Positions 1,824 through 64,000 of a DNA stretch of 64,000 bases are shown piece after piece. The stretch is from the NCBI GenBank assembly GCA_041747555.1, contig JBGTEY010000011.1:118274-182273 (forward strand). The letters are read 5' to 3'. The notes under the pieces are model-generated. The model did no database searches and had not been told where the DNA came from. It worked only from the letters and a program-made list of their open reading frames with translations. The number at the start of each line of letters is the position of its first letter. Position 1 is the stretch's first letter. The position numbers and the translations under genes are program-made. This DNA comes from Patescibacteria group bacterium (GTDB taxonomy: Bacteria; Patescibacteriota; Microgenomatia; UBA1400; PJMF01).

Positions 1824-3104
1824 TCACTCCATAAATTGATATAATTTATCACCCAAGTAGCCCGTTACTTCTGGTTTAATAATTTCTTGATTCAAAAATA
1901 ATCCTGATCTGACGGTAAATAATCCGTATTTTTTACTGAGCGAATCTACCGCGCGCGCCACGCGTTCTTGTTTCCAGTAGTCTGGCAAAATTGGTTGAGG
2001 AACTTGTTGCAACGGCTCAAGTAGCCCTAAGTACACCACAAACTTGATCACCGGGAACTGCTCTTTCCACTGCGAGACAAGTTGATTCCAAAGAATATCA
2101 AAATATTCTGAAAGATGGTTAATATGCCGTCGTAGCGTCACATACGTACCCCAACTATTAGGCCCATCACCACGCAAATAAACGCCAATCACACGCCCCG
2201 CCAAGTCCATCCGCCGCACCTTGTGCATGACTTCGGTTGCCAGATTGTAGAGCACTCTTTTAATATGATCGTGCTCTTTGGAGAGGGAAAAAAGGGTGAT
2301 TGATCTGCTGACGCTTTTCATGTGTGGGTTGCGGTCGATTCTGGTGAGGAACAGCGGCTCGTCTCCTCTGGCCATTTTTTGGAGTTCTTCTGTCCAGAAT
2401 GGGCCAAAAAGTGAAAGCAGCGTCTCTCTTTCTATAAAATTAATTTGAAATGGCGTGGTGACATTGAGTAATCGCAATTTTCTCTCGAGTCGCATGCCAA
2501 TTCCGCAGACATCGGCAAATGAGACTCGTGCTAGCAATGCGTCTCTATTGCGTGGCGTTACCTCGGTGACACTGCCCTTGGGGGACGTTTCACCCGTCAT
2601 TTTTGCCAAAAAACGATTGTAGCTAATCCCGACGTTGCAGGTTACCCACTCGCCGAGTGTTTTTTTGATTTGTGTTTGAACCTCGAGACCGAATTCTTGG
2701 GGAGAAGGATAGAGTTTTCTGAGCGGGGTGAAGTTGATAAATGATTCATCGAGTGAAAAGACTTCTACATCGGGCGCGAGTGAGGTAAATAGTTGCTTTA
2801 GGTCCTTCGTCGCAGAAAGATACATGTCAAATTGGGCGGGGACGGTGATGATATCGGGGCATTTTTGACGAGCGTCCTTGAGGCGTTCACCCGTTTTGAT
2901 GCCAAATTTCTTGGCTTCTTTGGACGCGGCAATGATGCAGGTTCTACCCACATCCTTGATGATGCCGACGGGTTTGCCCCTGAGCGCTGGCGTTTCTTGT
3001 TGCGCGAGTGTCGCAAAGTATGAGTTGATATCGACGTGCAGGAATGTTTGGTCTGGAATGTCTTCAGTCACACCACACCTCCTCGAGTTTCCAGGTTTCT
3101 TCAT
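1824..3104 (-). CDS. dinB: Y-family DNA polymerase IV
   Basis: FLHVDINSYFA...DESF(I) catalytic motifs (HVDxDxFFA / SxDE) of DinB/UmuC family; start placed at MKKPGNS (internal to longer ORF) by alignment logic. Confidence 0.8.
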   Translation of the reverse strand: MKKPGNSRRCGVTEDIPDQTFLHVDINSYFATLAQQETPALRGKPVGIIKDVGRTCIIAASKEAKKFGIKTGERLKDARQKCPDIITVPAQFDMYLSATKDLKQLFTSLAPDVEVFSLDESFINFTPLRKLYPSPQEFGLEVQTQIKKTLGEWVTCNVGISYNRFLAKMTGETSPKGSVTEVTPRNRDALLARVSFADVCGIGMRLERKLRLLNVTTPFQINFIERETLLSLFGPFWTEELQKMARGDEPLFLTRIDRNPHMKSVSRSITLFSLSKEHDHIKRVLYNLATEVMHKVRRMDLAGRVIGVYLRGDGPNSWGTYVTLRRHINHLSEYFDILWNQLVSQWKEQFPVIKFVVYLGLLEPLQQVPQPILPDYWKQERVARAVDSLSKKYGLFTVRSGLFLNQEIIKPEVTGYLGDKLYQFME

Positions 3105-3309
3105 CGCGGTTGAAGACAACTCGGTAGGCGTTACCCTTGGAAATGAGTGAGTACATGCGCTTTTGGACGCCGCCATCACGGACGTTGGTGACAAAGGTAA
3201 TCTCGTCAACACGATACACCCGACTATTCCATAAGAATTTTTTGGGCACAAAGGCCGCTTCTTTGTAGACGCCAATGACGCTGATTGTTTCGTGTATTCT
3301 TTGGTACAT
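3064..3309 (-). CDS. hypothetical 81-aa protein overlapping dinB 5' end
   Basis: ORF immediately upstream of and 40 nt overlapping dinB; no recognised motif. Confidence 0.3.
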   Translation of the reverse strand: MYQRIHETISVIGVYKEAAFVPKKFLWNSRVYRVDEITFVTNVRDGGVQKRMYSLISKGNAYRVVFNRDEETWKLEEVWCD

Positions 3310-3970: not shown

Positions 3971-4708
3971 TTAGTTTCGATATAGCTTCATTTTTATATC
4001 ACCTATTGCAGATTTCAGTTGATCAATTCGCCCCCTCGGATAACTGGGAATTATAATTTCTGTTTTGCCAGTTGTTGAGCACACTGATGGCACTATAAAA
4101 ACATTACTAATTGACCTCAATCTCAGGTTTTCATCTGTGCGACCCTGAAATAAATTGCGAACAATTAGACTTAGTTTTGATCGAAGTGAAACCTGCTCGC
4201 TGGTACGAGATTCGCGTTCTAAAAATAAAAAACGTACTTTTTGACCAAAAATTTCTTCTAAATTTCTAATTAATTCTGCTCTTTCTTCTATCGTCGTTCC
4301 CGCACCAGTTGCCGTAATGAATATAGTTCTCTTAGACGCAATATTTTCATTTAGCAGCGGTATGAATCCAGTTAAATTCAATTCTTGCTCGATCTCTAAT
4401 TTACTGTACCCAACAATTGGCAAATGTAAAGACACTACATTCCCTTCCTCGTCTGACGCAACGAGCAGAGAACAATAGCTGGCGCCATGCTCAAAGATTA
4501 TATTCGGATTTTCATGAGTACTGCAATTTGCCTGAAACATTGTGTCCAAAAAACCAGGAGTGCCCTTGATAAAGCTCTCTAATTTGCTGAAATCTTGAGT
4601 AGAAAGACCAACATTGCGATCACTCAATTGGTTAATTAGATCAGGACTATTGCTGAGTCTTTTACGATCAAGGACTCTGCCGTCAATTGGTTTTAATCCA
4701 TCCATCAT
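3971..4708 (-). CDS. hypothetical protein, possible Rossmann/SLOG-like nucleotide-binding fold
   Basis: 245 aa; segment IFITATGAGTTIEERAELI resembles the PGGxGTxEE signature of LOG/SLOG Rossmannoid domains; last gene of a 4-gene operon. Confidence 0.4.
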   Translation of the reverse strand: MMDGLKPIDGRVLDRKRLSNSPDLINQLSDRNVGLSTQDFSKLESFIKGTPGFLDTMFQANCSTHENPNIIFEHGASYCSLLVASDEEGNVVSLHLPIVGYSKLEIEQELNLTGFIPLLNENIASKRTIFITATGAGTTIEERAELIRNLEEIFGQKVRFLFLERESRTSEQVSLRSKLSLIVRNLFQGRTDENLRLRSISNVFIVPSVCSTTGKTEIIIPSYPRGRIDQLKSAIGDIKMKLYRN

Positions 4709-4716
4709 TTGTTTTC

Positions 4717-5250
4717 CTAGCTATCAATCTTACTATAAAAATGCACCTTCCCCCGAGACTCCCGCACCTCCCACCCCGGAAACTCAAAATAGTTAGAAGC
4801 CACCACCGCCCCAGGTCGCAATTCCGCCAATAATTTCTTCTCAAGTTTTGGCATCAGATACGTCGTGCCATACACAATCACCATGTCGTACGGCTCAAGA
4901 GTAACATTCCAAAAAGAATTTCTATAAATGTGGGCAGAAAGTCCTCTTTTTCGCACCTCTCTTTGTGATTTCCAGGCTAAAATTGGGTTGATTTCGATGC
5001 CATCAACGGCGTGCTCTCGCTCAGCGAGCGCTAACACAATCGTTCCATCGCCAGAACCAAGATCAATAATTTTTTTAGGCTTTGATCGTGCTACTTCATA
5101 CAAAACCGCATCAATAAAAGCTTGATCAGAGCGCACAAAAACCGCCCCATGCACCATAACACTGGCGTAGATGATCATCCGGATCAGAAGCACCACCAAA
5201 ACCAACGACACAATTCCAAGAACAATAAGAAAAAATAGTTGCGAGGTCAT
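4717..5250 (-). CDS. class I SAM-dependent methyltransferase with N-terminal TM anchor
   Basis: IIDLGSGDGTIVLALAE (motif I) and downstream acidic residue; N-terminal hydrophobic helix; start ATG overlaps upstream gene stop. Confidence 0.6.
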   Translation of the reverse strand: MTSQLFFLIVLGIVSLVLVVLLIRMIIYASVMVHGAVFVRSDQAFIDAVLYEVARSKPKKIIDLGSGDGTIVLALAEREHAVDGIEINPILAWKSQREVRKRGLSAHIYRNSFWNVTLEPYDMVIVYGTTYLMPKLEKKLLAELRPGAVVASNYFEFPGWEVRESRGKVHFYSKIDS

Positions 5251-5669
5251 CACACCATTGTAATCGAAAACCACACCCCCACCCCCGCCAAAACTGCCAC
5301 ACACTGCCAAATCACTTGATTAATAAACCACACCGCGTCACTTTTGATGAATGGAAAAAGAACATGATTCTCTGGTGGCTCGCGCTTGAGTGATGAAAAT
5401 TGTACCAGCAGCCAATACTGCACCTCTCCAAGAGAGCGAATCAACCAAAAAAGTGAGTATACAAACGCCAACACCTGCCAAGATCCCCACAACCAGATGC
5501 CAGCCGTGACAACCATCCAAAATAAGCCAAACACCAGCGCGTCTCCCCACACAAACACCCCAAGCGGAAGGAACCAAAATGCGTGACCGTAGGGATTGCG
5601 GTTTTTGATGGTGGTGGTGTAGCCGGCAACTAAGCAGAGCGTGGCGTACAAAAAAAGTAATAAGAGCAT
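5250..5669 (-). CDS. hypothetical integral membrane protein (4 TM)
   Basis: 139 aa, four hydrophobic helices, W-rich; translationally coupled to neighbours. Confidence 0.45.
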   Translation of the reverse strand: MLLLLFLYATLCLVAGYTTTIKNRNPYGHAFWFLPLGVFVWGDALVFGLFWMVVTAGIWLWGSWQVLAFVYSLFWLIRSLGEVQYWLLVQFSSLKREPPENHVLFPFIKSDAVWFINQVIWQCVAVLAGVGVWFSITMV

Positions 5670-5678
5670 TATTCAGTA

Positions 5679-6797
5679 CTATACTTCATTTAAAATTTGT
5701 TGTGCTGCCATCCACATTGTTGCTGGCACACTTTGTTGCGGAAAATACCTTGTTTCCCACTTTTCCCCAAACTTCTTTGCGCAAAAAATTCCGTTATCGG
5801 GTTTATGCCAGTGATTGGGACCACGATACGCGCTCCAAACAATCTTGAGTGGTATATAACCCTCTCGGGTTACTTCTTCGTACACGCCTTCATCTGGATT
5901 AAACGGGTCGTTACCAACTATTGGTTTTCGATAGGTAAACTCAGGTATCTTGTCACTGTTCTCAGGGACTTTAAAAGTAGCTTCCTGTCGCTTGAGTGAT
6001 CCATTCTCAATTACGTAATAGTGTCCAACACCCACTAGTCGGCCATTGGTTGCAGTAATCGTGTCAGCTTGAATATCAGCTGGAATATCAAACCTTCGTT
6101 CTGTCTTTTTGGGAGGTGCTTCTATTGGAGGAGAAACTTTTTGTATGGCGCGCGCCTTAGGCTTATCTTGGCCTGCATATGCTCGCAACGCAGCAAGTGT
6201 TGCAGGGCGCACGTCGTGCTCACTCAGTAGATCTAGTTTATCCTGAGAAATTGTGACAATTTGTCGACCGCTCTTCGCCATATTTTCACAAATTGCCTGG
6301 CACTCCTCATCGTTGAGCGTGTAATAGTAACCTGCGATCAAAAATAGTGCAGATTTTTGAATATGGTGAGTACCATTGCGTTTCTCCGATACGTCTCTTT
6401 GTTGTTGAATAAAAGTGCGAATGATCATTTTGCGGAGTTTCTTTTCATCAAGCTGAAATCCAAGCTCCTCACCTACCTCGCGTTGAATAGCTTCCTCAGG
6501 GGATTCTTCTTTGTGATCGCATGCACCTGTGGGTAGGCAGAGCATGCTGGCTTTCAGTTGTGTGAACTCAGCTGGTTCATCCTCACCTATCATTCGTTCG
6601 CGTTTTTTTGATTCCTTATGATCTTCATCAGGTACAGCCGTCAATACTATATGCGTCTCACCATCTATCTGGCACAGCAATACACAGGCTACGCCAAGTT
6701 CTAAGGTTTGCTCGAGTTCTGGATTTCGTTCTGGTCTTATCACGCCTGGTATTATACACCTCTGGAGCAACACCTGTAGGCAATCTGTAAGAAACAT
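5679..6797 (-). CDS. NUDIX hydrolase fused to C-terminal domain of unknown function
   Basis: NUDIX box GACDHKEESPEEAIQREVGEELGF (Gx5Ex7REUxEExGU); ~170 aa C-terminal extension without recognised motif; start trimmed to avoid head-on overlap with recQ. Confidence 0.6.
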   Translation of the reverse strand: MFLTDCLQVLLQRCIIPGVIRPERNPELEQTLELGVACVLLCQIDGETHIVLTAVPDEDHKESKKRERMIGEDEPAEFTQLKASMLCLPTGACDHKEESPEEAIQREVGEELGFQLDEKKLRKMIIRTFIQQQRDVSEKRNGTHHIQKSALFLIAGYYYTLNDEECQAICENMAKSGRQIVTISQDKLDLLSEHDVRPATLAALRAYAGQDKPKARAIQKVSPPIEAPPKKTERRFDIPADIQADTITATNGRLVGVGHYYVIENGSLKRQEATFKVPENSDKIPEFTYRKPIVGNDPFNPDEGVYEEVTREGYIPLKIVWSAYRGPNHWHKPDNGIFCAKKFGEKWETRYFPQQSVPATMWMAAQQILNEV

Positions 6798-6815: not shown

Positions 6816-8594
6816 ATGCCCAAACTCAGCGTCAAAAAACAATTTCAGAATGCCCACAATCTCCTCAAGGAAATTTTTGGATATAAAGCGTTTCATCCAA
6901 CGCAAGAGACAGCGATTCGCGCAGTTTTAGCAGGAAAAGACGCATTAGTGATCATGCCTACAGGCGGCGGAAAATCAATGTGCTATCAAATTCCAGCGCT
7001 CGTCCTTGGGGGAACGACAATTGTGGTTTCTCCCCTGATCGCACTTATGAAGGATCAGGTCGATGCACTGCGCGCAAATGGGGTCGCTGCGGAATACCTC
7101 AACAGCAGCATTCTCCCCGAACGACAACGTGAAATAATTGCGGACGTACTTGAGGGTACTATCACACTCCTCTATGTCTCAGCAGAACGTCTGATCACGC
7201 CTGATTTTATTAAAATTATCAAAAAAATTCAGCCAAAACTCTTTGCTGTCGATGAAGCGCACTGTATTTCTGCCTGGGGACACGATTTTCGGCCAGATTA
7301 CACCAGACTTTCTCAGATAAAAGCGCTCTTTCCCAAAACGCCAATCATCGCTCTCACCGCCACTGCAGATGAAATAACGCGCAAAGACATAATTTCTCAG
7401 CTAGAACTTACCAATCCTTTAGAATTGATCGATTCTTTTGACCGACCAGGTATTTCACTAACCGTTTTGCCGGGCCAAAAAAGAGTTGAAAAAATAAAAG
7501 AATTTCTCAGTGACAAAGACGGGCAATCAGGAATTATCTACTGTCTGACACGCAAAAAAACAGAAACCATTGCCAAAAAACTACAACAAATTGGCCTCAC
7601 TGCCGCCAGTTACCACGCTGGAATGTCATCATCAGACCGGTCGAAAATTCAAAAAAGCTTTGTGCGCGATAAGACCCAAATTATCTGTGCTACCATTGCT
7701 TTTGGCATGGGTATCGACAAGTCAAATGTGCGCTGGGTGATCCACTACAACCTACCCAAAAACATCGAAGGCTACTACCAAGAAATCGGTAGAGCCGGTA
7801 GAGACTCCGCACCCGCACAAGCCCTCCTCTTTTACACCTACGCTGACGTTGAAATGATTAAGAAATTTTTTATTGACGTTAAGCAGGGTGCACTCCAGCT
7901 CGCAAAACTCGAACGAATGAAAGAGTATGCGGAAGGTGTCATTTGTCGACGCAAGATCTTACTCCAGTATTTTGGCGAAACATACCCAAAAAACTGCGGT
8001 AATTGTGATGTCTGCGAAAACCCCTATCCAACCCGAAATGGCACCAAGATCACCGAAAGCATTCTGTCTCACCTCACAGATATGAGTTCTGGCGATGAAC
8101 CCAACACAATTCAACTTGTTTCGGCCCTCACCCAATCTAGCAGCAAGGTCAGCTTCGCTTCTTGGCATTTTTATCTGGCGCAACTTAAAAATCAGGGAAT
8201 TATCGAAGTCAATTTTGCAAAAAATCAATCATTGGCGGTGACCCAAAAAGGCATAAGTGTGGTCAAAAAGAAAAAACCAGTCAAGTTGGTGCTGCTCGAT
8301 ACTTTTATTGAAAGGCAAGAAAGCGCAGGCAAAGCAAGCAAGAAGCGCTCTAAGAAAAAGCCCAAAAAAGACTATTTCAAAAACCCGCTCTACGAAAAAT
8401 TGCGAGAAACCAGGCTCGAACTTGCCCAGAAAAACTCCCTTGCCGCCTACATGGTCTTTAGTGACGCAACACTGCTCGAAATGGCGCATGAAAAACCAAA
8501 AAATAAACAAGAAATGTTGAATATATCAGGTGTGGGTGAGGTGAAGTGGGAGCGGTACGGTGAAGCTTTTTTAAATGTTATCGCAAAAAACTGA
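6816..8594 (+). CDS. recQ: ATP-dependent DNA helicase RecQ
   Basis: MPTGGGKSMCYQIPAL (Walker A), DEAH box (VDEAHCIS), RecQ zinc-binding Cys cluster, C-terminal HRDC-like region; 592 aa. Confidence 0.9.
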   Translation: MPKLSVKKQFQNAHNLLKEIFGYKAFHPTQETAIRAVLAGKDALVIMPTGGGKSMCYQIPALVLGGTTIVVSPLIALMKDQVDALRANGVAAEYLNSSILPERQREIIADVLEGTITLLYVSAERLITPDFIKIIKKIQPKLFAVDEAHCISAWGHDFRPDYTRLSQIKALFPKTPIIALTATADEITRKDIISQLELTNPLELIDSFDRPGISLTVLPGQKRVEKIKEFLSDKDGQSGIIYCLTRKKTETIAKKLQQIGLTAASYHAGMSSSDRSKIQKSFVRDKTQIICATIAFGMGIDKSNVRWVIHYNLPKNIEGYYQEIGRAGRDSAPAQALLFYTYADVEMIKKFFIDVKQGALQLAKLERMKEYAEGVICRRKILLQYFGETYPKNCGNCDVCENPYPTRNGTKITESILSHLTDMSSGDEPNTIQLVSALTQSSSKVSFASWHFYLAQLKNQGIIEVNFAKNQSLAVTQKGISVVKKKKPVKLVLLDTFIERQESAGKASKKRSKKKPKKDYFKNPLYEKLRETRLELAQKNSLAAYMVFSDATLLEMAHEKPKNKQEMLNISGVGEVKWERYGEAFLNVIAKN

Positions 8595-59659: not shown

Positions 59660-62600
59660 TTAAGGGGTTGGGGATGGCGAGCTCTGACCCTGATTCAATG
59701 GGGTTGGTACTGGAGACGGCGTAGCTGAACCCCCACTTGAGGGACTTGGTGTTGGAGATGGTTGCGGCGATGCTTCTGGAGATGGGGATGGACTTGGTTC
59801 AACTGATCCGGCGCCTTCAGCACCTTCGCTTGTCTCATCAGTTTCGCCTGCTTCATCTTGATCACCTGCAACTTCACCAGACTCTTCTGGGTCATTGTTT
59901 TCTTCTGGTTGTGGACTCTGACTTGGCTGTGGTGATCCGCCTTCACTCTCGAGAACTTCTACTAAAGCGGCTTCACCACTCGTTGTGAGCACTGCTAACC
60001 AGTTAATTTCAATATCTTGTGCCTGCGCTTGAGTAAGTCTAATGATAAATGATCCAACTTCAACAGATTCTAGGTGGTAACCACCATTGATTGTGCCTCG
60101 AGAACTGAGGTATACAGTTGGGGCGTCCGCATATGCCTTGGCGAAGGTTACTCTCACTTTGGTAGTTCCTGCTGGAATCACCACACTACCTGCTGTATCT
60201 TTATTGACTCGAATACTACCTCTGATGGTGACGTCTGCCAAGAACTCGACACCGCTCTTGAAGACTGCTCGAGTATTAAATACGACCTCTTTGAGGAATG
60301 TCCAGGCAGTGGCTGTTATTGTCGTATGATTATTCAGGTTTGCATTGATTGCCTGGACTTGTGTGTCGATCGCTGCCAATTGAGTCACCGCAAGTTCAGC
60401 TTGTGTTGCCGCATCCTGTGCCAATTGCTGATCAATATTAGATACTCTACCCTGACTATCAAATTGTACTCGATCAGAAAATGTTTTAAATTGTTCATTC
60501 TGCTCTTGCACCGCCCTCACAATCATAGGTGTGACCTTACCGTAATCAACTTTCCAGTGTTCATTTGGATTGTCAAAATAGGCCGTGACCGCGTCTGGGT
60601 ATATTTCATACAACTGTTGAGCAATAAATCCAGTGTGCATTTTGCTTGATCCATCAGCTTTAAAGCTGTAATCCATAACTTGCACCTGGAGCAATTCCTC
60701 AAGACCTTTGCTGCCCATTGAAAAATTTTCCTTTAAACGTAGATCAGAAGAGGTGTTGTATGAAGTCGTACTACTCCCAAACGTGATTGAGCCGACACTT
60801 GTCCCATTGCCATCGTTAAATTGTACGAGTGTTGAGGGGCCTGCAGCTGTATGATCGTCCAATCCAGCTTGAATGGAGATGCCCGATCTATTAGTAGCAT
60901 TCCCATCATTGAAAAATTCTGCAGCATAATCAGTTAAGTTGGCTGAAACTTGAAGTTGACCATTCGTTGCCAAAGTTCCAGAACCCAAAAAGTTAAAATT
61001 TTGATTTAAACTAACATTTCCAAAGTGAAGCGCTTCAGAACCATCGGTTGTCGTAAAGATCATGTACCGACTACCAGATTGAGCAAACTGCAGTGCTGCG
61101 GATTGATTATCTGGAAATCTGATTGTTGTTGCTGAATTTAAATTTATATCACTACCACCTACAACCAAGTCATTCACACGTACATCGCTCTCAAAATATC
61201 CTCCATAATCCCAGTTTGCGCCCTCTTGGTAAATTGCATATTGCGTGCCTGAGACCCCGTTGGTGTCTGTGGCTGGATCATTAATGCGAATTCCATATAG
61301 AGAGTTACCAGTTGATGCAGTGAAATTTGTAAAATCAAGATCAATCAATGTGGTGCTTCCCGTAGAAGTTGTCCCTGTCCCCCAATCTACATTTATAAGC
61401 TCACCAGACGTCCAGCTGGTATTAAGTGCATAATCGGTAAATGTACCAATTGTCCCTGGCGTAATTGTTGTTAACCCTGATAAGGTCAATGTTGTGGAAT
61501 CAACCCCAGCATTTGCATCTAGATTTCCTGTAAATGTCACCTGACCTGATCCTGCTTGTGTAAGTGCTCCAGTGTTAGTGAATGTGAAAAATGGAGTGCC
61601 GTTGTCGGCAATGATGAAGTCGCCTGTGGTTGTGAGATTATATGTTAATCCTGTAGCATTATCGATTTCCATGGTTAAATTAGCCTCAGTGATTGATTGT
61701 GCATACACATCATCAAATGTGGGTGTGCCCGCTACAGTATCTACATACGCTTTAATGCTCTGCTGTGTGGCAAGGGCTGTAGCAGAGTTTGAGACGAGGT
61801 CGTCTTCATCGAGAATTGAACTGACGGCTGTTGAGGCTCCGAGTTGAAGTGAGCCATTGACGAGCAATGCTCCATTTGAGAATGAGAGTAGGTCAGTGTC
61901 TGTGGTAAGCCCAAGAGTCGTGCCATCCAAAAGCAAACTATCTACTGTCCAGCTCGTAAAACCAGTTCCCACACCAGAAGCGTTAATATCCCAACCAGAA
62001 GAGTTTATTGCAATTGCATCTCCGCCATCTCCCAGAGTTACCGTGCCATTTGCGACCAGTGAGCCATTTGCTGTAAGCGTGCTAGCAAAAGTACCCGCAC
62101 CAGCCGTGGTAATTGTTGCATTTCCACCCACGGTGAGTGATGATCCTGTGACATCGAGGCCGCTTGTTACATCCACATTGCCGGTGAGGGTTACTTGACC
62201 AGCTCCAGCTTGAGTAAGTGCTCCAGTGTCAGTGAATGTGAAAAATGGCGTGCCGTTATCTGCAATGATGAAGTCGCCGGTTGTTGTTAGGTCAAAGGTC
62301 AACCCACCCGCATTATCAATTTCCATGTTGAGATCAGCTTCAGTAATAGATTCGGCATACACTTGATCAAATGTTGGAGTTGAGGTGCTTATTTGATTAT
62401 CAACATAGGCCTTTATGCTCTGCTGTGTCGCCAACGCTGTTGCTGAATTTGAAGTGAAGCTATCTTCATCAAGAATTGAACTAACCGTTCCTCCAGAAGT
62501 AAGAGTGAGCGTGGAAGCAGTAATATCTCCTTCAACCGATAAGTTAGCTTGGTATGTTGAATTTGAATTAATAATGGTGTACGTACTATCCGCACCAGCA

Positions 62601-64000
62601 TCAAGCAGGTTCCAATAGACAGAGTTGTCTCCAGAAATCGCGCCAGAGCTCACAATTTCGAGGCGATCATCGGTGCTCTCATCATAAAGGACACTCCAGT
62701 TTGCATCATTTCCAAAAGCAAATCCTACGTTATCCTGCACTTCCCAAGCTCCAGAAATAGCCTGTGCATCTGAGTCAAAAATTAACGCCTCTATTGTATT
62801 CTCGGTCGTCGCATCTGTAGATGCTAAACCGTTTAATGCTCCTCCTGTAAGCGAAGTAGTGCCGTCAGTGAGGGTACCGCCAGTGATGATACTTGAAGCG
62901 TTCAGGGTTGTTACGTCAGAAATTGCTCCTGCATTTATATCAATTCCGTTGATCGTTTCATCTGTATGAGCGGTAATTACACCGCCAGTTGAAAATGAGT
63001 AACTCCCGCCAACAGTCAAGTTTGCATTGGTAACATCAAGTCCATTGCTCGCATCTACATTGCCTGAGAGCGTTACCTGACCTGCTCCTGCCTGCGTGAG
63101 TGCGCCACCATCGGTGAAGGTAAAGAAGGTAGTGCCGTTGTCGGCAATGACGAAATCACCAGTGCTGGTCAAGTCTACAACCAGGTTGCCAGTTAGTGCA
63201 TTAGTTATTGTCGTTGCTGCGTCAAGTGTTAGGGCATCTGCGAGTTCAGTAAAATTCAAAGAGTCTGCAATGACATTGTAGGTAAGTGTGTCAGTTGCAG
63301 AAACGGTTGCGTTAATAGTTGATGAATCTGCGGCGCTGAGAGTATTGGTTGAGCTGATAGTTTGTGAGGTGACGCCGTCAGAAATTACCCAGTTTGAATA
63401 TCCGCCGGCTCCAGCATCAGCATCAATCCATGCTAAGACTCCAGCCGAGTTTGTAGATAAAATTTGATTTGCGCTCCCATCGGCAACGGGAAGTGTATAA
63501 ATAACGTCTCCTGCGAGTGTATCTGGAGCTTTAAATCCAGTATAGTTGTCTCCCCCAGCCTCAAGCTCCTGGAAACGAATTTCACCAGTATTACCAGCGG
63601 CAATACCAAATGGATTAATGTTAAATGCTGACGCAGACACGTCAAAGTAAAATGGTGAGTCGCTCGTGGTATTACCAACAGCAAGGTCGTCTGAGGTGGC
63701 AGTTAAGTAGGTAATTGCACCATTATCTGTCCATTTTGAAGAACCAGAACCACCAGAAGTTACCCAGCCGCAAGTTGGTTGTGTAGGATCACAGAGGAGA
63801 TCGTTACCCCAATACAAACTATCGCCCGCTTCTCCTGCTGCAGCTGCGCCATACGAAAGTACATTGTCTGGATCTGCGTCATTGTTGAGACCAAGGGTGG
63901 TGCCTTGCACCGCAACTGCCCCCGAGAATGTAGTGAGCGCTGCATTAATATCGATATCATCGCTGGCAAAATCGATGCTTGGATCCGTTACTCCGACATC
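59660..64000 (-). CDS. giant repetitive surface/fibre protein with Peptidase-S74-like intramolecular chaperone domain; 5' end beyond window
   Basis: >1440 aa; Thr/Gly/Asn-rich beta-rich repeats (three copies of TTTGDFIIADNGTPFFTFT...QAGAGQVTLTGNVD), SDLRLKENF...GFIAQQLYEIYPDAV S74-type motif, Pro/Ser/Glu-rich C-terminal tail; frame remains open to nt 64000. Confidence 0.7.
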   Translation of the reverse strand, partial: DVGVTDPSIDFASDDIDINAALTTFSGAVAVQGTTLGLNNDADPDNVLSYGAAAAGEAGDSLYWGNDLLCDPTQPTCGWVTSGGSGSSKWTDNGAITYLTATSDDLAVGNTTSDSPFYFDVSASAFNINPFGIAAGNTGEIRFQELEAGGDNYTGFKAPDTLAGDVIYTLPVADGSANQILSTNSAGVLAWIDADAGAGGYSNWVISDGVTSQTISSTNTLSAADSSTINATVSATDTLTYNVIADSLNFTELADALTLDAATTITNALTGNLVVDLTSTGDFVIADNGTTFFTFTDGGALTQAGAGQVTLSGNVDASNGLDVTNANLTVGGSYSFSTGGVITAHTDETINGIDINAGAISDVTTLNASSIITGGTLTDGTTSLTGGALNGLASTDATTENTIEALIFDSDAQAISGAWEVQDNVGFAFGNDANWSVLYDESTDDRLEIVSSGAISGDNSVYWNLLDAGADSTYTIINSNSTYQANLSVEGDITASTLTLTSGGTVSSILDEDSFTSNSATALATQQSIKAYVDNQISTSTPTFDQVYAESITEADLNMEIDNAGGLTFDLTTTGDFIIADNGTPFFTFTDTGALTQAGAGQVTLTGNVDVTSGLDVTGSSLTVGGNATITTAGAGTFASTLTANGSLVANGTVTLGDGGDAIAINSSGWDINASGVGTGFTSWTVDSLLLDGTTLGLTTDTDLLSFSNGALLVNGSLQLGASTAVSSILDEDDLVSNSATALATQQSIKAYVDTVAGTPTFDDVYAQSITEANLTMEIDNATGLTYNLTTTGDFIIADNGTPFFTFTNTGALTQAGSGQVTFTGNLDANAGVDSTTLTLSGLTTITPGTIGTFTDYALNTSWTSGELINVDWGTGTTSTGSTTLIDLDFTNFTASTGNSLYGIRINDPATDTNGVSGTQYAIYQEGANWDYGGYFESDVRVNDLVVGGSDINLNSATTIRFPDNQSAALQFAQSGSRYMIFTTTDGSEALHFGNVSLNQNFNFLGSGTLATNGQLQVSANLTDYAAEFFNDGNATNRSGISIQAGLDDHTAAGPSTLVQFNDGNGTSVGSITFGSSTTSYNTSSDLRLKENFSMGSKGLEELLQVQVMDYSFKADGSSKMHTGFIAQQLYEIYPDAVTAYFDNPNEHWKVDYGKVTPMIVRAVQEQNEQFKTFSDRVQFDSQGRVSNIDQQLAQDAATQAELAVTQLAAIDTQVQAINANLNNHTTITATAWTFLKEVVFNTRAVFKSGVEFLADVTIRGSIRVNKDTAGSVVIPAGTTKVRVTFAKAYADAPTVYLSSRGTINGGYHLESVEVGSFIIRLTQAQAQDIEINWLAVLTTSGEAALVEVLESEGGSPQPSQSPQPEENNDPEESGEVAGDQDEAGETDETSEGAEGAGSVEPSPSPSPEASPQPSPTPSPSSGGSATPSPVPTPLNQGQSSPSPTP

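Follow-up and report, generated by a model that had tools for sequence, protein, structure and literature searches.

A tightly packed Patescibacteria gene cluster as a possible membrane-proximal protein-modification module with a predicted CheD/NTAN1-fold amidohydrolase

A 64,000-nucleotide stretch of DNA from a Patescibacteria group bacterium (contig JBGTEY010000011.1, positions 118,274 to 182,273), referred to below as the window, carries four co-directional open reading frames (ORFs), A, B, C and D, on its minus strand at 3971-6797. Three of these, encoding a tryptophan-rich membrane protein (B), a methyltransferase with a transmembrane (TM) anchor (C) and a predicted Cys-His amidohydrolase (D), may form a lineage-specific, membrane-proximal protein-modification module, with a NUDIX protein (A) as a variable neighbour. 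This reading is tentative and falls well short of an even chance, and a rival explanation, whereby four unrelated lineage-specific genes without a common function lie head to tail in a compact genome, perhaps co-transcribed for economy, is nearly as likely. The components themselves, with the exception of B and the C-terminal domain of A, belong to known superfamilies (NUDIX, aKMT-type class I methyltransferases and CNF1/YfiH-like hydrolases). The novelty lies in a rare family with the predicted fold of CheD and NTAN1, absent from Pfam and NCBIfam and with a putative Cys-His-Glu triad, which is encoded beside a TM-anchored aKMT-like enzyme.

The four genes are separated by junctions of 9 nt (A-B), -1 nt (B-C) and 8 nt (C-D), with the stop codon of B (TGA) and the start codon of C (ATG) sharing one base in the sequence TGATG. 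An earlier sequence-only reading of this DNA had described four tightly packed minus-strand ORFs that encode a NUDIX protein with a C-terminal domain of no family, a small polytopic membrane protein, a TM-anchored class I methyltransferase and a fourth protein of 245 aa, and the layout and the first three descriptions hold good. The cluster is packed more tightly than the window median, which in a crude gene call is 60 nt between same-strand genes. In the same gene call, however, about 7/34 of the same-strand junctions (~20%) are of 10 nt or less, and because such junctions are common in the window three consecutive ones are suggestive without being remarkable. A scan for promoter and terminator consensus sequences inside the cluster gave nothing above the shuffled-sequence expectation.

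Part of the neighbourhood is found again in related DNA. One 1.76-kb contig (L088) carries homologues of B (86% identical), C (82%) and D (66%) in this order, preceded not by A but by an unrelated C-terminal fragment of 83 aa (X), to give X-B-C-D. On two contigs of ~0.8 kb (L089 and L090) it is a short A-like C-terminal end (10/18 residues identical) that precedes a B homologue with 85% identity. B is hence the anchor of the cluster: one relative retains B-C-D, another A-B. When compared with the related contig, the ratio of nonsynonymous to synonymous substitution (dN/dS) is about 0.07 for B, 0.14 for C and 0.10 for D, and since this indicates purifying selection all three are real genes. The synonymous divergence (dS) of 1-2.5 is near saturation, so that the order retained in L088 is not merely the product of recent common descent. 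This retention speaks against the compact-genome explanation, in which A would be a housecleaning enzyme of the NUDIX type with no functional tie to the membrane protein B, the methyltransferase C or the amidohydrolase D, nor these to one another. The stop/start overlap of B and C tells in the same direction, and it is at least suggestive that an enzyme anchored in the membrane should be encoded beside a membrane protein.

Gene C (4717..5250, minus strand, 177 aa from ATG) encodes one strong N-terminal TM segment at residues 5-23 (5182-5238; Kyte-Doolittle hydropathy 3.4), a short stretch at residues 24-50 and then a Pfam Methyltransf_25 domain, whose S-adenosylmethionine (SAM)-binding motif I, IIDLGSGDG, lies at residues 61-69 (5044-5070). 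The best NCBIfam match is NF041081, an archaeal protein-lysine N-methyltransferase (E 9.6e-11), and in the PDB residues 50-164 find their best match in Sulfolobus islandicus aKMT (5fa8/5jwj, E 2.3e-10). The whole methyltransferase (MTase) domain of C aligns with aKMT, and this seven-beta-strand domain is specifically similar to it, as is characteristic of the aKMT/FAM173 group. FAM173B, a relative of aKMT, consists of a transmembrane domain followed by a pre-MTase and an MTase part; it methylates ATP synthase subunit c, and its paralogue FAM173A methylates ANT, both substrates being small membrane proteins (PMC9006661). The layout of C corresponds to the description of FAM173B given there, with a TM anchor, a short pre-MTase stretch, GAVFVRSDQAFIDAVL in C as against the VPT..V..ML type, and the MTase domain. 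C differs from this group in being bacterial and in having FVRS in place of the VP[ST] motif. On the strength of these similarities C may be specific for lysine.

Distant homologues of C with 29-34% identity are encoded on a Chelatococcus megaplasmid (L091, 2851-3678) and on an Agrobacterium megaplasmid (L092, 2875-3693). These alphaproteobacterial proteins have an N-terminal signal-peptide-like sequence in place of the TM anchor, which is a further difference from the aKMT/FAM173 arrangement seen in C, and they also have a C-terminal extension. Both genes directly adjoin an amino-acid permease gene, with an overlap of 17 nt in Agrobacterium.

The neighbouring gene B (5250..5669, minus strand) encodes a protein of 139 aa with 11 tryptophans and, by hydropathy, four hydrophobic segments at about residues 1-19, 31-52, 55-77 and 112-137. 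It is the best-conserved gene of the cluster, with homologues of 85-86% identity on L088, L089 and L090, and its 90% cluster holds two further proteins. No family was found for B in Pfam, NCBIfam, PADLOC or PHROGs. In its likely topology, the conserved and positively charged loops, which carry K22, K95 and K109, are predicted to be cytoplasmic.

The product of gene D (3971..4708, minus strand, 245 aa) is likewise without a family in Pfam, NCBIfam, PADLOC and PHROGs and without a sequence relative in the PDB. When 1.84 billion cluster representatives were searched exhaustively with phmmer, a family of 14 proteins, D included, emerged at E <=1e-3; a word-indexed search returned D itself only. 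Alignment A1, made up of 12 sequences (D and 11 of the homologues found by phmmer, 42-28% identical), retrieved only 3 proteins in a profile search, and 12 members of the family gave no Pfam or NCBIfam match. Eight residues are invariant in A1 (P68, A76, C79, D86, G89, H95, T134 and P207) and four more are at least 90% conserved (T64, E73, S77 and P97). Most of these fall in the predicted active-site motif THENPNIIFEHGASYCSLLVASDEEGNVVSLHLP at residues 64-97 (4418..4519, minus strand), which contains Glu73 (4490-4492), Cys79 (4472-4474) and His95 (4424-4426) as well as Asp86 and Gly89. The dominant form of the motif in the family is E-x2-A-S-[FY]-C-[ST]-L-L-x3-D-x2-G-N-x4-H-x-P, with the histidine 16 residues after the cysteine.

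An AlphaFold2 model of D built from A1 has a mean predicted local distance difference test (pLDDT) score of 80.4, with a core above 90, and a predicted template modelling (pTM) score of 0.77. The highest scores in a fold search with this model are those of human NTAN1 (9.2) and Thermotoga maritima CheD (8.7), followed by YlmD and YfiH (both 6.7), BLF1 (5.5) and CNF1/CNFy (5.1-5.4), with the next unrelated match at 3.8. Foldseek against the PDB also places NTAN1 first (E 1.3e-4, probability 1.0) and CheD next (E 6e-3, probability 0.99), ahead of YfiH and CNF1. The TM-scores are low (0.3-0.45), and the relationship is therefore distant. In the BFVD database the model also matches uncharacterised giant-virus proteins of 250-306 aa (Mimiviridae, Tupanvirus, Moumouvirus; best E 3.4e-5), one of which is annotated as CheD.

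The proteins with this fold have been grouped as the 'CNF1/YfiH-like cysteine hydrolases', in which a cysteine and a histidine are strictly conserved about 17 residues apart and a third, variable residue, positioned 6 residues before the cysteine, orients the histidine (PMC7022378). The triads are Cys75/His92/Ser69 in NTAN1 and Cys27/His44/Thr21 in CheD, with a spacing of 17 in both (PMC7022378). The model of D has the alpha-beta-beta sandwich of this superfamily, and the family has an invariant C79/H95 pair with a spacing of 16, together with E73, at least 90% conserved, 6 residues before the cysteine. In a joint MAFFT alignment, C27 of CheD and C75 of NTAN1 fall in the C79 column, T21 of CheD and S69 of NTAN1 fall in the E73 column, and the histidines of CheD and NTAN1 are one column away from that of the D family. 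The CheD and NTAN1 query sequences were checked against the PDB. The fold and the conserved residues suggest that D has amidohydrolase chemistry, and D is accordingly predicted to be a Cys-His(-Glu) amidohydrolase of the CNF1/YfiH-like superfamily that stands outside the CheD and NTAN1 families proper.

With the CheD of T. maritima (2F9Z), D shares a cysteine at the start of a strand and a histidine at the end of the following hairpin. It differs in having glutamate where the CheD triad has threonine, in its Cys-His spacing of 16 rather than 17, in an additional N-terminal region of ~60 residues and in a C-terminal helix. The adjoining methyltransferase is aKMT-like and not CheR. Membership of the CheD family proper was rejected, given that there is no Pfam CheD match, that hhalign of the D family against the T. 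maritima CheD sequence gives an E of only 0.2 and that no che genes are found within 10 kb on either side. The sole alignment that hhalign returned places P68, E73 and C79 of D on P16, T21 and C27 of CheD, a register consistent with the structural match.

NTAN1 (6A0E), the eukaryotic protein N-terminal asparagine amidohydrolase, is 11-16% identical to D. Its asparagine-recognition residues, D71, T73, T74, S254, T255 and E260 (PMC7022378), have no evident counterpart in D, which is bacterial and has no N-degron genes beside it. The NTAN1 family was also rejected for D, with no profile match and with D ending before the C-terminal extension of NTAN1 in the joint alignment; hhalign of the D family against human NTAN1 alone aligned the wrong region and gave a spurious, non-significant result. 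According to its structure paper, NTAN1 is without sequence relatives in prokaryotes or eukaryotes (PMC7022378).

In the module as it is tentatively proposed, C would be held at the membrane by its single N-terminal helix with the aKMT/FAM173-type methyltransferase domain in the cytoplasm, a location suggested by Arg24, whose position after the helix fits the positive-inside rule. The enzyme would then methylate one or more lysines of a membrane protein, for which the co-translated B, with K22, K95 and K109, is the obvious candidate. D, as a soluble Cys79/His95(/Glu73) amidohydrolase, would hydrolyse a side-chain amide (Gln/Asn to Glu/Asp) on the same or an associated protein, and A would be a variable 5' neighbour instead of an obligate component. 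CheD is a chemoreceptor glutamine deamidase that works beside a methyltransferase, in the CheR/CheD system, on membrane receptors. The action of CheR/CheD on chemoreceptors and that of FAM173B on ATP synthase subunit c provide analogies for such an arrangement, not evidence for it, and a functional coupling between the genes, as well as the identity of any substrate, can be suggested only provisionally. The fuller version of the proposal, in which B-C-D represents a new bacterial membrane protein-modification system whose FAM173-like methyltransferase and Cys-His-Glu deamidases of the NTAN1/CheD fold act on B or a partner, is doubtful.

A number of observations weigh against a module of this kind. 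The tight coupling is not kept in L088, where the gaps are 70 nt between B and C and 92 nt between C and D, and in L089 and L090 B is followed, after ~100 nt, by an unrelated short ORF with no C. Nine distant homologues of D (42-28% identical) share no partner, and their surroundings, which were also checked by tblastn, are free of NUDIX, B-like and C-like genes. They are accompanied instead by an ArsR/AHSA1 pair and VIT1 (P0003, L004), by three small ORFs (P0004, L005), by a SpoU methylase and DUF1801 (P0008, L002), by two unknown proteins (P0010, L003), by a transposase (P0012) and by a HIT protein (P0013), or lie on short contigs with one partial ORF upstream (P0005, L006, 1.4 kb) or one divergent partial ORF alongside (P0007, L093, 1.9 kb); the ninth is considered further below. 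With respect to the enzymes, the match of C to NF041081 (41.9 bits) lies far below the cutoff of 200 bits, which means that C is not an equivalog and that its lysine specificity is putative, and the comparison of the D family with the CheD sequence is not significant. The substrates named for the module are putative. Short junctions are common in this genome, and the GC content at third codon positions (GC3) is strongly uneven, at 0.37 in A, 0.58 in B, 0.47 in C and 0.31 in D, compared with ~0.45 in the neighbouring genes. This spread hints either that the cluster was pieced together from parts with different histories or that the value for B is skewed by its Trp-, Gly- and Val-rich composition.

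Several of these points are what would be expected if the genes were unrelated. The compact-genome explanation accounts readily for the frequency of short same-strand junctions, for the heterogeneous GC3, for the lack of a common partner among the distant D homologues and for the finding that the neighbours of B differ in each of the three related contigs. It is also consistent with the flanks, which consist of ordinary or housekeeping genes for RecQ, inositol monophosphatase, PEBP-family, 2',5'-RNA-ligase/CPDase-like, PIN, Y-family polymerase, HD and metallo-beta-lactamase proteins. Searches for further relatives were negative: JGI metagenome scans with an alignment of B (A2) and a sub-alignment of the D family (A3) were empty, and a RecQ-anchored scan of GTDB species-representative genomes gave no syntenic relative, the best match (L008, 69%) sharing RecQ only.

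The surroundings of the P0004 gene mentioned above form a tight mini-operon of a different kind around a D-family gene. On L005 (7246-8666) three small ORFs (103, 58 and 81 aa) lie ahead of the homologue in the same direction; the gaps measure 9, 8 and 3 nt, and the arrangement recurs on two more short contigs.

The ninth D homologue, P0006 (L007), bears on a further explanation, according to which D acts on a small molecule and, together with the NUDIX protein A, the cluster serves nucleotide or envelope-precursor metabolism at the membrane. Its gene overlaps that of a formyltransferase and is flanked by this and a hexapeptide acyltransferase within a glycan/glycosyltransferase cluster, a setting which hints at a small-molecule substrate for D and to that extent counts against a protein substrate. 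By the example of YlmD/FAMIN the substrate would then be a nucleoside or nucleotide, and by that of YfiH/PgeF a precursor of the cell wall or of a glycan. In support of such a role, a NUDIX gene adjoins B in the window and probably also in L089 and L090, and the explanation would keep a weak form of the earlier 'nucleotide-centred' idea. Against this, L088 lacks A upstream of B-C-D, and the structural similarity of D to YfiH/PgeF and YlmD/FAMIN (DUF152) is lower than that to NTAN1 and CheD, with no Pfam DUF152 match. The YfiH site has the composition His-Cys-His. It coordinates a zinc ion (PMC7022378), whereas D has one invariant histidine and one invariant cysteine. A small-molecule role is on this evidence unlikely.

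Gene A occupies 5679..6797 (minus strand) when read as a 372-aa protein from ATG 6797, and 5679-6743 in the 354-aa form from GTG 6743, the start chosen in the public gene call for the identical contig in Logan/NCBI. Upstream of the GTG there is an extended -10-like box, TGTATAAT, at 6751-6758 (minus strand; the region concerned is 6741-6758), which ends 7 nt before GTG 6743 and whose position would imply a leaderless or near-leaderless mRNA for A. The alternative start, ATG 6797, is only 18 nt from ATG 6816 of the divergent RecQ gene.

The protein matches the Pfam NUDIX family PF00293 at 27.9 bits (E 2.6e-6; cutoff 21.1). Its NUDIX box, GACDHKEESPEEAIQREVGEELGF, is read directly from the sequence at 6456..6527 (minus strand), residues 73-96 of the 354-aa form, and in comparison with the consensus GX5EX7REUXEEXGU it has one extra residue between the G and the first E. 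The catalytic REx2EE core (REVGEE) is intact, as befits a NUDIX hydrolase, and the box is the sole part of A recognised by Pfam, NCBIfam and PHROGs, the remainder of the NUDIX domain being divergent. After a proline-rich linker comes the C-terminal domain at residues 216-354 (5682..6098, minus strand), for which no family was found, with no Pfam match below E 0.18; matches to chromo-domain structures in the PDB, with E only ~1, were dismissed as noise. The domain is predicted with low confidence to be all-beta, and a single-sequence AlphaFold2 model of A (pLDDT 38) is unusable. A word-indexed search of 5.8 billion proteins returned A itself only.

The presence of NUDIX also lies behind a last explanation, that of a membrane-associated nucleotide-signalling, conflict or anti-phage system built from NUDIX and SLOG-like components. 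The sequence-only reading had taken the TGAGTTIEE stretch of D (4292..4318, minus strand) as a nucleotide-binding signature and the 245-aa protein as a SLOG/LOG Rossmannoid. Neither idea survives the alignment and the model. Only T134 (4307-4309) of the stretch is invariant, the glycines vary in A1 and the family motif is [ST]-[GA]-T after a beta strand; in the model the stretch lies at the end of strand 127-132. All that D has in common with SLOG/LOG proteins is thus a short stretch with Gly and Thr behind a beta strand, whereas its fold differs, its invariant residues include a Cys/His pair, it has no Pfam match and neither of two fold searches gave a structural match to SLOG, so that the conservation and the fold searches together rule out a SLOG or Rossmann assignment.

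The wider signalling or conflict system fares little better. In addition to NUDIX, it could draw on a match of the PADLOC mad2 model to the methyltransferase domain of C (E 9.6e-14) and on a PIN-domain gene ~5 kb from the cluster. The mad2 match, however, is to a generic SAM-binding domain, and PADLOC otherwise gives one marginal NUDIX-box match in A and none for B or D, while PHROGs gives generic MTase and NUDIX matches only. A known anti-phage defence system of PADLOC-DB was for these reasons, and in view of the housekeeping flanks, rejected. No relative of A, B, C or the D family was detected in scans of viral contigs. With tblastn, D had no match in phage records or on plasmids and neither A nor B had one on plasmids, where C is represented by only three distant megaplasmid homologues (29-34%). 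The flanks do not constitute a defence island, and the four-gene set as such is not conserved. Two outcomes had been named at the outset as telling against the NUDIX-SLOG idea: the neighbourhood proved largely unconserved, with only parts of it kept in relatives, whereas D and the C-terminal domain of A did not turn out to belong to ordinary housekeeping families. With its SLOG part largely refuted, a system of this type is very improbable.

The window contains no rRNA. Elsewhere in it, the divergent RecQ gene at 6816-8594 encodes a protein 69% identical to the RecQ on L008 (10001-11731), a metagenome-assembled genome contig labelled Pseudomonadales, and ~50% identical to Bacteroidota RecQ. 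Downstream of the cluster, an 81-aa ORF at 3064-3309 (minus strand), which matches DUF6504 weakly (E 0.006), overlaps with the beginning of the Y-family (IMS) polymerase gene at 1824-3104 (minus strand), and the two look like a small mutagenesis cassette. At the other end, a 1416-aa protein (59660-63910, minus strand) has a Peptidase_S74 domain (E 3e-11), which serves endosialidases and tail-fibre proteins as an intramolecular chaperone, and may be a large surface fibre or prophage-derived.

Taken as a whole, the cluster is a lineage-specific oddity and does not support a new nucleotide-signalling or defence system, and its restriction to a lineage that has been sampled poorly limits its general importance. 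Its interest lies with D and C. The D family has glutamate at the third position of its putative triad, and D itself, although bacterial, has its nearest solved structure in the eukaryotic NTAN1; if the predicted relationship is true, this would be the first prokaryotic family that is structurally closest to eukaryotic NTAN1. Were the module itself to prove real, the lysine methylation of membrane proteins in mitochondria would have a bacterial counterpart, and a TM-anchored aKMT-like enzyme encoded beside a small membrane protein would offer a tractable bacterial model for FAM173-type methylation.

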